Shown: in pieces, positions 16,455 to 24,959 of the stretch | Numbering within the stretch: the stretch's first letter is position 1 | How the letters are laid out: every line of letters starts with the position of its first letter | NCBI GenBank assembly: GCA_038734945.1 | Contig: JAVYOA010000003.1 | Span: 1-64,000 of the forward strand | Direction: 5' to 3' | DNA: 64,000 nt | DNA from: Fervidicoccaceae archaeon | Lineage (GTDB): Archaea; Thermoproteota; Thermoprotei_A; Sulfolobales; Fervidicoccaceae | Program-made: the position numbers and the translations under genes | Notes under the pieces: generated by a model | What the model was told of the DNA's origin: nothing | Seen by the model: the letters and a program-made list of their open reading frames with translations, nothing else | Databases searched by the model: none

Positions 16455-17402
16455 CTAGTACAGCACTGAGACGATTATCGGCAATGTTATTGTAGCATCG
16501 CCATAAACAACTATGTGCTTTGCCTCCTTCTTCAGCTTTCCCCACGATATTGCCTCTCTTGTTTGTGCTCCGCTCAAGCTGCCATCATACTCAAAAGCAG
16601 TAGTGAGGTAAACAGCATAGTCTAGACCTCCCTTGAACTGATTCCACCAAATGACGTGGTGTTTGCTTATTCCTCCCCCGATAGATAAGGCAAGGCTTTT
16701 TTCATTAACAGATTCAAATACTAGATCCTCGATCAGTTTTTGATCGAGGGAGAAATCAAGCTCCACGTTGTTCAGCCTACCATATATTAGTGCGTTGGTT
16801 CCAAAGCTACCGTCATAAAATCCGGGAACAATTATCGGAACTTTTCTCTCATATGCAGCTCTAAGTATCGAATTGGGATCATCTATCCTCTTGCCAGCAG
16901 AATAAAGAAGCTCATTTGGAGATATTTTTTTCCCCTTGAACTCCTCCATAATTGTTTTTACGAATGATTCGATCACTGGTCCATAGCTCTCCATGGGAAT
17001 GAGAATGTTTCCTAGTCTATGAATTTCTAGGTCACGAAGCATTAAATCATCTAGTTCAAACCTTCCCCTGAAGTAACCAGGTCCAAGGGATTTAGCTATA
17101 TCATGATCTAGTGTTCCAGTCGTAGTTACTATTATATTGAAATGCCCGTCTCTGATCAGCTTCGCTATTAAACCTCTGAGACCAGTTGATACGATGTTTC
17201 CCGTAAAGGAAAGGAATCTCAATTTGCTCTCTCTTACCCCTTCTTTTAGTATCTCTGCTGCCTCTGATAGATGCCCAGCTGTGAAGCCATGAACCATTGA
17301 ATAGTATCTTAGGAGCTCCTTGCAGCTCCTTAGAACTTCGATGCTGGGGGGATCATCGATGATCTTTTCCCTGATCACGTCTTGTCTTCTCATTCTCTTC
17401 AT
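16455..17402 (-). CDS. dys: Deoxyhypusine synthase
   Basis: SFTGNIVSTGLRG, HRLGNI, GGGISKHH, DGSLSGAQTREAISWGK. Confidence 0.95.
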   Translation of the reverse strand: MKRMRRQDVIREKIIDDPPSIEVLRSCKELLRYYSMVHGFTAGHLSEAAEILKEGVRESKLRFLSFTGNIVSTGLRGLIAKLIRDGHFNIIVTTTGTLDHDIAKSLGPGYFRGRFELDDLMLRDLEIHRLGNILIPMESYGPVIESFVKTIMEEFKGKKISPNELLYSAGKRIDDPNSILRAAYERKVPIIVPGFYDGSFGTNALIYGRLNNVELDFSLDQKLIEDLVFESVNEKSLALSIGGGISKHHVIWWNQFKGGLDYAVYLTTAFEYDGSLSGAQTREAISWGKLKKEAKHIVVYGDATITLPIIVSVLY

Positions 17403-18847
17403 CCCTTCGTGACTCCAATTGGCTTAAGTCTTGCGACCAACTTCGCTATTCCAACTCTATCAGCCACTAGCGCAACCCTATCTACATCCTTGTAAGCAGA
17501 GGGTGCTTCCTCTACTAACACTCCCTTTGAGGCCGCTCTAACATATATTCCCTGCCTATTGAGCTCTCTAATGAGCTGGTCTGCTGTGTAGTTTTTAAGA
17601 GCCTTGGATCTGCTCATCCACCTGCCTGCTCCATGGGGAGCTGTGTACCACGTTCTTTCTCCTTTAGCAGATCCCACAAGAACATAGCTGGCTGTACCCA
17701 TTGAACCTGGGATTAACACTACCTGCCCCACGCTTCTATGATCGCTTGGAATCTCTGGATGTCCGGGAGGAAATGCCCTCGTAGCTCCTTTTCTGTGAAC
17801 TACAAGCCCTCTTCGCTTTCCATTCAAAGTATATTCCTCGTATTTTGCTATATTATGGGCTACATCGTAAACTATTTCCAATCCCAGCTTCTCATCATCT
17901 GTAGATAGGACTTTCTTGAAGGATTCCCTGACCCAATGTGTTATTAGCTGTCTGTTTGTCCATGCGTAGTTTGCTGCTGCTGCCATCGCCTTAAAATAGC
18001 TTTGTCCCTCTTCCGAGTTAAAAGGTATGCTTGCCAGCTCTCTGTCGGGAGGATTTATGCCGTATTTTCTCATTGCTCTCTCCATTATCTGGAGGTAGTC
18101 ACTAGCTACTTGGTGTCCAAGGCCTCTGCTCCCTGTATGTATCATGACTGTGACCTGACCCACGTTGGTAATTCCTATCTGCTTTGCTATCTGCTCATCG
18201 TATATTTTATCAACAACCTGGATTTCAAGGAAATGGTTTCCACTACCTAAGCTCCCTAGTTCTGGAGCTCCTCTGCTTTTAGCCCTTTGAGAGACCTTCT
18301 CGGAATCTGCCACTTTCCAGCTACCTCTCTCCTCAATATGTTCAGGATCTTCATTTCTTCCGTATCCCTTCTCTATTGCCCACTCCACGCCTCTATCAAG
18401 AACCTCATCAAGCTGCGCAGTTGAGACTTTGATTTTCCCCTCACTTCCAAGGCCGCTGGGGACATTTACTGAGAGCTCATCCACTAGGTCCTTTATTTTT
18501 CCTTCAATATCCTTTAGTTCGAGCTCGGTCCTCAACAGTCTTACTCCGCAGTTTATATCGTAGCCAACGCCTCCAGGGCTTATGACTCCCCCTTCCTCGA
18601 CGCTCATTCCAGCCACTCCTCCTATTGGGAATCCATATCCCTGGTGACCGTCTGGCATCACATAGCTTGCCCCCACAATTCCATTCAGACATGCCACATT
18701 TGCTGCCTGTTCGAGTGTCATATCCTCTCTCATCTTTGATAGGAGGAAGTCATCTGCAAATACTACTGCGGGAACCTTCATGCACGGCTTTTCTCCCTTC
18801 TCGATTATCCATTCATAGTCGTTCAATTTCCTGACGTTTACAGGCAC
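17399..18847 (-). CDS. rtcB: tRNA-splicing ligase RtcB
   Basis: PDGHQGYGFPIGG, GVGYDINCG, GSGNHFLE, HTGSRG, HNIAK, HRKGATR, PGSMG, HGAGR, EEAP.AYKD. Confidence 0.97.
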   Translation of the reverse strand: MPVNVRKLNDYEWIIEKGEKPCMKVPAVVFADDFLLSKMREDMTLEQAANVACLNGIVGASYVMPDGHQGYGFPIGGVAGMSVEEGGVISPGGVGYDINCGVRLLRTELELKDIEGKIKDLVDELSVNVPSGLGSEGKIKVSTAQLDEVLDRGVEWAIEKGYGRNEDPEHIEERGSWKVADSEKVSQRAKSRGAPELGSLGSGNHFLEIQVVDKIYDEQIAKQIGITNVGQVTVMIHTGSRGLGHQVASDYLQIMERAMRKYGINPPDRELASIPFNSEEGQSYFKAMAAAANYAWTNRQLITHWVRESFKKVLSTDDEKLGLEIVYDVAHNIAKYEEYTLNGKRRGLVVHRKGATRAFPPGHPEIPSDHRSVGQVVLIPGSMGTASYVLVGSAKGERTWYTAPHGAGRWMSRSKALKNYTADQLIRELNRQGIYVRAASKGVLVEEAPSAYKDVDRVALVADRVGIAKLVARLKPIGVTKG

Positions 18848-23564: not shown

Positions 23565-24293
23565 CTATCTCCCTCTCAAAGCTCTTCTGACAGCAGGGTC
23601 CCTTTCCGCTATTTCCTTCAACTTCTGTTCAAAGCTCTCACCTGTGCTCACAAGCTCGCTTAAGTAAACTCCTGTTCTTCCTATTTTATCCCTTCTACTG
23701 AGAACTCTCATTCTTTCCAAGACTGTTTCGAGGCTTATGCCAAGCAGTGATGCCACTTCCCCCTCCCTTCCTAAAATGCTGGACACCAGATAACCGTGCT
23801 CAATCGGCTTGATCAATTCCAATCTCTTATTGACGCCCAGGACTCTTTTCCCTTCTTGAAGCTCCTCAAGAGAAATTGAACCTCCAAACTTATAGAACTC
23901 AACCTCCCTGCTTTGAAGCCTCGCAAGCGGAAAGCTGACAACTATTAAACCCTCTGGATCTAATGTTATGTATCCCTTTGGAGTGCTCATGGGCGTGGCT
24001 TGAACAATTTTTCGCTCGAACTGCTTGAGCCCAAATCTATCTAGAGCTATTTCTATTATATATGATGGAGTCATATTGAGGACAGCTATATCAACATCGC
24101 TCTTTTCGTGAACATCTCCTCTTGCAACACTTCCGTGGAGAAGGGGATCAGCTCCCGCTTTCTTGAGAGCTTCCATAATTTTTGAGGCAATTTTTCTCTT
24201 CTCCGTGAGAAGCTCTATATCCTTCTGTTCATATAGTATGATCCGCTCATCCAGATTTCTGGATATCTTCTCTCTGACCATCCTGTTCCCCAA
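23565..24293 (-). CDS. Pol-beta superfamily nucleotidyltransferase (archaeal, uncharacterized)
   Basis: HGSVARGDVHEKSDVDI, QATP..TPKGYI, EFYKFGG, GVNKRL, RRDKIGRTGVY. Confidence 0.88.
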   Translation of the reverse strand: MGNRMVREKISRNLDERIILYEQKDIELLTEKRKIASKIMEALKKAGADPLLHGSVARGDVHEKSDVDIAVLNMTPSYIIEIALDRFGLKQFERKIVQATPMSTPKGYITLDPEGLIVVSFPLARLQSREVEFYKFGGSISLEELQEGKRVLGVNKRLELIKPIEHGYLVSSILGREGEVASLLGISLETVLERMRVLSRRDKIGRTGVYLSELVSTGESFEQKLKEIAERDPAVRRALRGR

Positions 24294-24324
24294 TTTCTAC
24301 AAAGAGAGGGGGGAGGAGGCTGGT

Positions 24325-24362
24325 CCAAAGCCCCGCATCCTTGGCCGCTAGACTACCCGGCT
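24325..24362 (-). tRNA. tRNA-Gln(TTG) 5' half (positions 1-37), probable split, trans-spliced tRNA gene
   Basis: AGCCGGG-TA-GTCTAGCGGCCAAGGAT-G-CGGGG-CT-TTG-G: acceptor 5' strand, full D arm, anticodon stem 5' strand and TTG anticodon (24326-24328). It continues into ACCAGCCTCCTCCCCCCTCTCTTT with no T arm and no 3' acceptor strand. Confidence 0.85.
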
Positions 24363-24388
24363 GCTGTCATAAAAGTTAGTTAGGCAAG

Positions 24389-24402
24389 CTTTTAAGTTTT
24401 AG
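24389..24402 (-). promoter_or_regulatory. BRE/TATA promoter of the tRNA-Gln 5' half
   Basis: Minus strand CTAAAACTTAAAAG about 30-40 nt upstream of tRNA position 1, similar to the spacing at tRNA-Pro. Confidence 0.6.
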
Positions 24403-24479: not shown

Positions 24480-24959
24480 CTATTCTTCGCTCTCTTCCTC
24501 TAGCTCCAGTTCCTTTTCCTCTTTAGCTAGCTCCTCCAAGGATGGCTTTCTAGTTGTTTCCTCCAAGAGATCCTCCAGGATTTTTGCATCATCTTCTCTT
24601 ATGTATGGAGCGACTGCTGCAACCCCCCTATCATGATAATTCTCCTCGCTTACTTTCAGACTCTCATAGACTATGAGATACACAGGAAGGGTTGCTATTA
24701 TCGTGTCCTTGCCGGTTCTCTTAAGTCCAAAATCTCTATATCTCGCAATAACTTCTTTATCTGAGCCTACCTTCAGTTCTATTTCTATGGAATCTCTTAG
24801 GATCATGAAGTCGCTAAAAGTTGGTAACCACTCATTCATGAGAAGATCCTTAGCAACGCTCTTAACGACATCCTCCAGTTGACCTTCTAATACTTCCTTC
24901 TTTTTGATCTTACCTGAATGTGCCTGAATTACAATGCAACTCTGCCTTTGAGATGACAT
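24480..24959 (-). CDS. Conserved crenarchaeal hypothetical protein (DUF2286-like)
   Basis: EW.P..SDF.ILRD, LPVYLIVYES, VAPYI pattern; acidic tail. Confidence 0.7.
   Translation of the reverse strand: MSSQRQSCIVIQAHSGKIKKKEVLEGQLEDVVKSVAKDLLMNEWLPTFSDFMILRDSIEIELKVGSDKEVIARYRDFGLKRTGKDTIIATLPVYLIVYESLKVSEENYHDRGVAAVAPYIREDDAKILEDLLEETTRKPSLEELAKEEKELELEEESEE

Follow-up and report, generated by a model that had tools for sequence, protein, structure and literature searches.

Of the trans-spliced tRNA genes on record, the accessible part of PMC4033280 counts 29 gene pieces, representing 12 anticodons in seven genomes. In Nanoarchaeum equitans, tRNA-Glu(CUC) as well as its UUC counterpart have a common 3´ half joined at 37/38 (PMC3218864, Table 1), and the two 5´ halves, which carry synonymous anticodons and lie far apart, meet this 3´ half through a complementary trailer and leader that form a bulge-helix-bulge (BHB) motif (accessible parts of PMC3218864, PMC4033280 and PMC4390854). 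The same organism, a reduced symbiont, has a trans-spliced tRNA-Gln(UUG) joined at 32/33, for which the accessible part of PMC3218864 (Table 1) lists neither a CUG partner nor a shared 3´ half. Split tRNA-Asp and tRNA-Lys cases in Desulfurococcales, as described in the accessible part of PMC3218864, have a canonical hBHBh´ motif with a GC-rich stem of 13-14 bp and separate promoters, with tRNA-Asp joined at 37/38; the halves, each with a single partner, are either adjacent or separated by 4.5 kb. In Caldivirga maquilingensis, synonymous tRNAs arise from a constitutive half that is joined to alternative partners, as reported for its split and tri-split tRNA-Gly, tRNA-Ala and tRNA-Glu (accessible parts of PMC4390854 and PMC4033280).

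The locus described here is a tRNA-Gln(UUG) 5´ half in a 64-kb stretch of DNA (the window), corresponding to contig C3 of the source genome (G000; 1.34 Mb in 9 contigs, 99.95% complete by markers). Its predicted organization resembles that of the N. equitans tRNA-Glu genes, with distant 5´ halves for synonymous anticodons and a single 3´ half. It differs in that the isotype is Gln, the carriers form a whole family within a free-living crenarchaeal lineage, and one relative (G005) has two dedicated 3´ halves. Isotype, anticodon and predicted trans-splicing are shared with the N. equitans tRNA-Gln(UUG), but the junction is at 37/38. The hBHBh´ motif, separate promoter-like boxes and similar hosts are features in common with the Desulfurococcales tRNA-Asp and tRNA-Lys, whereas the pieces here are on three contigs and the 3´ half appears to be shared. 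The alternative use of one half is as in C. maquilingensis, though with a different isotype and a different order, and no three-piece tRNA was found here. Thus, the split-tRNA mechanism is known, while the isotype, the lineage and the breadth are probably new here; prior annotation is possible. No crenarchaeal split tRNA-Gln and no split tRNA-Gln(CUG) was found in the freely accessible literature searched, and the accessible parts of PMC7080975, PMC9897764 (with one supplement), PMC8007984, PMC8450103 and PMC12397907 hold no such case.

The tRNA-Gln(UUG) 5´ half and its neighbours

On the minus strand of the window, the 38-nt 5´ exon of tRNA-Gln(UUG), from A1 to G37, occupies 24325..24362 and comprises the acceptor 5´ strand, the D arm and the anticodon stem 5´ strand, with the anticodon TTG at 24328-24326. 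As the preliminary description had claimed, the half (24362-24325) is undamaged and ends at G37, and it diverges at 37/38 into an A (24324), a C-rich trailer and then a protein gene, all of which can be read directly on the minus strand. Positions 32-35 (24327..24330, minus) form the 5´ strand of the central 4-bp BHB helix and pair with GGAG of the 3´ leader, two of the pairs being U-G. The 3-nt bulge G36-G37^A covers 24324..24326 (minus), and by the known BHB rule EndA would cut between 24325 and 24324. The trailer (24307..24323, minus) pairs with the leader of a 3´ half on contig C9, and the pyrimidine/T run that follows it (24298..24306, minus) is, from its sequence, a candidate terminator. 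Judged together with its partner pieces, this element very probably functions as the 5´ half of a tRNA-Gln(UUG) made by trans-splicing.

The half was missed by both ARAGORN and Rfam, for which a tRNA-Pro was the only call in the 64-kb window; standard annotation misses tRNA-Gln halves in this group. A search with the 38-nt half matched tRNA-Gln 5´ parts in 40/41 genomes and gave no match with a reversed-pattern control, which argues against a chance match. A permuted tRNA gene was considered and rejected, in line with the earlier claim, since there is no T arm upstream of the half and the 3´ half is on a different contig (C9).

Downstream of the half is a gene with a nucleotidyltransferase domain (23565..24281, minus; PF01909, E 8e-07), which in relatives starts at the ATG corresponding to 24281. 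This gene order is found in 8/8 genomes of the family (tblastn identity of 46-67% for the G001-G007 loci). The idea that it represents an insert that split the tRNA was not supported; inserts between nearby halves elsewhere are LAGLIDADG-like, and the sole nucleotidyltransferase homolog among loci L060-L228 is near an intact gene (L217). The gene upstream of the half encodes a DUF2286 protein (24480..24959, minus) and is also present upstream in G002, G004, G005 and G006.

The position of the half between these genes bears on whether an intron-containing tRNA-Gln was broken at a repeat during assembly and the wrong flanks joined. The two 5´ halves of the genome differ by one base and unitigs from run X4 break inside the half, as would be expected for such an error. 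The junction at 24324 is outside the repeat, however, and a 2.9-kb X4 contig covers, with three differences, the downstream gene as well as the trailer and position 24352. In addition, the trailer-to-gene junction is present in the 7 other family genomes and the 3´ half has its own promoter-like box. Given the synteny and the independent X4 contig, we regard misassembly as virtually excluded. In a strain represented in run X4, the trailer base at 24322 is U instead of C, and the pairing is kept as U-G.

Partner pieces, predicted pairing and processing

Two places in the source genome match the half at ≤8 mismatches: the window itself and C4:17898-17935 (plus strand), where a 5´ half identical except for the anticodon CTG (CUG) is located. 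The preliminary description, which did not foresee this second 5´ half, had predicted a separate 3´-half gene. This gene exists as the single 3´ half of the genome, at C9:274250-274213 (minus strand, C38 at 274250), and is flanked by xerA and an ERCC4/XPF gene. Its junction, GGAG-AT, fits the RRRG-NN pattern that had been predicted, and it ends in CCCGGCT-ACCA, with an encoded CCA. Both 5´ halves would use this C9 3´ half, and the tRNA-Gln pieces are on three contigs (C3, C4 and C9). The proposed check for a missing intact tRNA-Gln(TTG) gave 0 Gln among the 42 tRNA genes called by ARAGORN, and T-arm and D-arm scans outside of the called genes detected no further Gln piece in the genome. When joined in silico, the halves give tRNA-Gln(ttg) and tRNA-Gln(ctg), each recognized by ARAGORN as a 76-nt cloverleaf with a 5-bp T stem. 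As a side observation, the ARAGORN calls Pro(cgg), Ser(aga) and one Met of this genome (C9:44116-44317, C9:229732-229843 and C4:22843-22933) appear by eye to be misreadings of Trp, Thr(CGT) and Thr(TGT) genes that carry introns.

A BHB at 37/38 can be drawn with standard pairs for both combinations, with a 3-nt bulge, a 4-bp helix and a 3-nt bulge. Positions 32-35 pair with GGAG, the bulges being G36-G37^A (UUG) or G36-G37^U (CUG) and AU^C38, and the central helix (4/4 pairs) and anticodon stem (5/5 pairs) are complete. The UUG trailer pairs with the C9 leader first over 11 bp and then, beyond a 2-nt bulge on the leader side, over another 6 bp (-35.1 kcal/mol; 17/17 pairs standard). In the CUG pairing, stretches of 2 bp and 14 bp are separated by a small loop (-33.2 kcal/mol). 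Of the leader predicted earlier, the RRRG-NN junction is thus present, while the perfect complement expected beyond it was wrong in the distal part; the exact predicted sequence is absent from the genome, where its nearest matches have 4 mismatches, one of them being the true leader. From these pairings, the putative shared leader is a compromise, with a proximal part that fits the UUG trailer perfectly and a distal part that fits the CUG trailer.

Unconstrained co-folding of the halves, as had been proposed, kept the acceptor stem and the trailer helix and left the central 4-bp helix incomplete (for the UUG pair, 2/4 pairs at 37 °C and none at 65-80 °C). When prefiltered sites were ranked as partners, the true leader was first of 3284 for the CUG trailer and third of 3573, self excluded, for the UUG trailer (-36.4 vs -38.2 and -37.6 at two unrelated sites). 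The UUG trailer is therefore not unique in the genome, and specificity needs the exon stems too.

Promoters were scored with a matrix trained on the upstream regions of the 42 ARAGORN tRNA genes, with 2000 random windows as background. The BRE/TATA-like box claimed for the UUG half is located at 24389..24402 (minus), ends 26 nt before A1 and scores 9.7, and the boxes before the other two pieces score 11.8 and 13.4. These scores exceed those of 48% (UUG half), 76% and 98% of the 42 tRNA promoters and are reached by 1.55% (UUG half), 0.5% and 0.15% of the random windows (n=2000). For the 3´ half, 47 nt separate the end of the box from C38, enough to accommodate the leader. By motif score and spacing, each of the three pieces thus has its own promoter-like box.

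Genes for the splicing enzymes are present as well. The window contains rtcB, the only copy of the tRNA-splicing ligase gene in the genome (17399..18781, minus; ORF limits from the first ATG), 5.5 kb from the half gene and without an internal stop (PF01139, E 8e-176 at 17402-18709). EndA is represented by two PF01974 genes, corresponding to two subunits. The alignment of the catalytic subunit with PDB 3p1z/3ajv covers the loop region, with K-P kept and E in place of R46, the residue named at that EndA position in the accessible part of PMC12397907.

Collectively, these data suggest that three small genes, each with a promoter, make both glutamine tRNAs of this organism from a UUG 5´ half, a CUG 5´ half and one common 3´ half. 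Each 5´ transcript would anneal to the 3´ transcript via the 16-17 bp trailer-leader helix together with the anticodon and acceptor stems, two-subunit EndA would cut after G37 and before C38, and RtcB would join the exons. The ends would be trimmed by RNase P and tRNase Z, the CCA being already encoded.

We also considered that the pieces could be non-functional leftovers of an integration or rearrangement event (att-site fragments) and that an intact tRNA-Gln gene went unassembled. Partial tRNA copies are common at archaeal integration sites, including one of Gln-TTG in Pyrococcus yayanosii (accessible part of PMC9897764), and a gene for a tyrosine recombinase directly adjoins the 3´ half. 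This recombinase is, however, the only one in the source genome, is single-copy over the cut-off in 5/5 family genomes searched and has archaeal XerA as its best match (211 bits, cut-off 220), and thus looks chromosomal. Moreover, the 3´ half is not repeated elsewhere in the genome and has 0 exact matches in viral contigs, the closed, single-contig genome G004 also lacks an intact tRNA-Gln gene, and remnants would not keep promoters, the exact 37/38 boundary, the BHB geometry and leaders that co-vary across 5 genera. We consider this explanation very improbable compared with functional split genes. The recombinase (L037:2280-3404; C9:274279-275403) is divergent from the 3´ half and has a C-terminal zinc ribbon, and the order of xerA, 3´ half and XPF is syntenic in G001, G002 and G006.

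Separated tRNA-Gln pieces across the family

Forty relatives were compared in all, of which seven (G001-G007) form, with the source genome, a family set that is probably Fervidicoccaceae-like. Relatives with named records are Desulfurococcales/Sulfolobales archaea. All 8/8 family genomes have only separated tRNA-Gln pieces, and a contiguous tRNA-Gln pattern was found in 0/5 of those tested. Four genomes (the source genome, G001, G002 and the single-contig G004) have a 2+1 set, in which a pair of 5´ halves goes with a single 3´ half. In G004, the 5´ halves at 102158 and 963128 and the 3´ half at 1009083 are at least 46 kb apart and there is no intact gene. G005 has two 5´ and two 3´ halves, with each 3´ half matched to one 5´ half (-29.5 and -30.1 vs -5.5 and -19.7 for the crossed pairs), and G006 has one 5´ half and two 3´ halves whose leaders differ. 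G003 (71% complete) has two 5´ halves and a single 3´ half, to whose leader the CUG trailer is poorly fitted (3/4 helix pairs), and G007 (61% complete) has one of each.

These differences bear on whether the 3´ half of the source genome is truly shared or whether a second, UUG- or CUG-specific 3´ half is absent from the assembly. Consistent with a missing piece, two 3´ halves with different leaders exist in G005 and G006, the second 3´ half of G006 is also between xerA and the ERCC4/XPF gene, XPF flanks the CUG-specific half of G005, and the source genome is a 9-contig bin from which a second 3´ half could be lacking. The 2+1 sets of G001, G002 and G004 point the other way; in all three genomes the single leader pairs with both trailers (-29.8 to -38.2 kcal/mol), and the source genome is nearly complete by markers. 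A dedicated second 3´ half is thus improbable, if less so than the remnant and misassembly explanations, and we favor one 3´ half common to both 5´ halves. This adds a free-living, family-wide example of a common 3´ half.

The leaders differ between genera yet match their own trailers, in a pattern of co-variation that extends across 5 genera. When 20 5´ halves were scored against 17 leaders, a comparison in which close kin are not independent, the leader of the same genome was the best partner for 15/20 (3 of them tied); of the remaining 5/20, three scored best with a near-identical leader of the same genus and two with the leader of another genome. The central helix was kept at 4/4 pairs in 19/20 5´ halves.

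Split tRNAs in other relatives and at other sites

Among the 33 relatives outside of the family, 22 have only contiguous tRNA-Gln genes, 4 were not scorable and 7 have separated pieces. Dispersed CUG pieces were found in G016, G023, G033 and G036; G013 has a separated piece for which no partner was found, and the halves are 155 nt apart in G022 and 755 nt apart in G024. In G016 and G036 (L049 and L050), the orphan 3´ half directly follows another tRNA gene with no AT-rich box in between, and therefore may be co-transcribed with the preceding tRNA.

When genome contigs were scanned for 3´ halves preceded by a BHB-type junction, at least 120 loci were obtained. Among the matches listed, 90 have a 5´ half <100 nt upstream, 3 have it at 127-175 nt, 23 are orphans and 4 loci are too short, one of these also being an orphan. 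After 7 of the resulting 24 orphans were dropped as repeats of loci already examined, the remaining 17 were spread over 16 genomes, and a 5´ match was present in 14 of these. Among these listed matches, a non-contiguous 5´ half pairs with the leader of the same genome in 14/14 genomes (-29.5 to -48.5 kcal/mol), compared to -7.2 to -18.2 kcal/mol for contiguous genes (n=6). The halves are dispersed in at least 9 of the 14 genomes, and at least 6 of these have 2+1 sets, with completeness not given; the at least 6 sets outside the family, again among the matches listed, fall into two groups with leaders unlike those of the family. Both tRNA-Gln halves are thus dispersed in at least 21 genomes (8 in the family, 4 and 9), which indicates that split tRNAs are far commoner in this group than recorded. 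One carrier, Ignicoccus pacificus DSM 13166 (L085), has a CUG 5´ half 32 kb from the 3´ half on the other strand, with a trailer-leader pairing of -41.9 kcal/mol and an intact UUG gene; being cultured and having a closed genome, it is open to bench tests. In a second tRNA-Gln of G050 (L213 and L120), the pieces are separated by 1070 nt, and a 325-aa ORF that belongs to no clear family is located between them. The CUG anticodon is on the 3´ piece, together with an intron, which places the break ahead of the anticodon loop.

Halves separated by 667-761 nt on one strand were found in at least 5 of the 14 genomes, among the matches listed, and in G024. In five of the six spacers, with halves 667-755 nt apart, there are ORFs on the opposite strand that resemble one another (L206:1539-2283, L199, L203, L225 and L056) and are LAGLIDADG-like; of these ORFs, four were scanned, with three passing the Pfam cut-off for homing endonuclease or LAGLIDADG domains and one giving a weak match. 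The spacers with such ORFs are bounded by long perfect stems, and the 667-761 nt cases may be either long cis introns or already split genes. The ORF in the L213 spacer has no LAGLIDADG match, and the L207 spacer has no ORF of ≥90 aa. Five further tRNA-Gln loci (L057, L074, L089, L151 and L113) have 97-175 nt spacers with long terminal stems and AT-rich, TATA-like boxes inside, and are candidates for adjacent halves like the tRNA-Asp of Aeropyrum.

Living relatives thus display a short intron, a 97-175 nt spacer with an inner TATA-like box, a 667-761 nt spacer with an endonuclease gene, dispersed pairs and 2+1 sets, the last in at least 3 lineages whose leaders are unrelated. With these intermediates, whether split tRNAs are ancient or derived from introns becomes testable by phylogeny. 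The locus in the window would go back to a 37/38 cis intron that had a long terminal stem and gained an inner promoter; the halves would then have moved apart, with the later loss of one of two 3´ halves. More tentatively, position 37/38 of tRNA-Gln could be a hot spot at which split genes arise repeatedly in Desulfurococcales-type archaea via an intron with an antisense LAGLIDADG gene, followed by transcription of the 3´ exon on its own, drift and sharing of the 3´ half. The LAGLIDADG intron would position both a promoter region and a long, perfectly paired terminal stem beside the 3´ exon, and we infer the step from such an endonuclease-bearing intron to a split gene. If true, this recurrent, endonuclease-linked route would provide a mechanism for a late origin of split tRNAs.

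The source genome has four split tRNAs made from seven pieces. The tRNA-Lys(CUU) gene (L038) is split at 30/31 into adjacent halves with an inner promoter (C9, plus strand, 5´ half from 427908 and 3´ half from 428095); 3´ halves alone were found in G001, G002, G004 and G006, and the gene is intact in G005. The initiator tRNA (L198) is also split at 30/31, with the 5´ half at C2:38731 (plus strand) and the 3´ half at 36333-36269 (minus strand), the latter with an extra 37/38 intron. These halves are 2.4 kb apart on opposite strands and form a duplex of -32.0. The gene is likewise split at 30/31 in G002, a 5´ half with a trailer is present in G001, and G004, G005 and G006 have a cis intron at 30/31. 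As judged from these gene arrangements, the initiator tRNA shows what appears to be the same intron-to-split path at another site. The flanks of the initiator tRNA also look complementary, with GGCGGGG before the 5´ end and CCCCGCC after the 3´ end (L198 and L185-L189, as well as relatives), and possibly form an extra pairing or processing stem.
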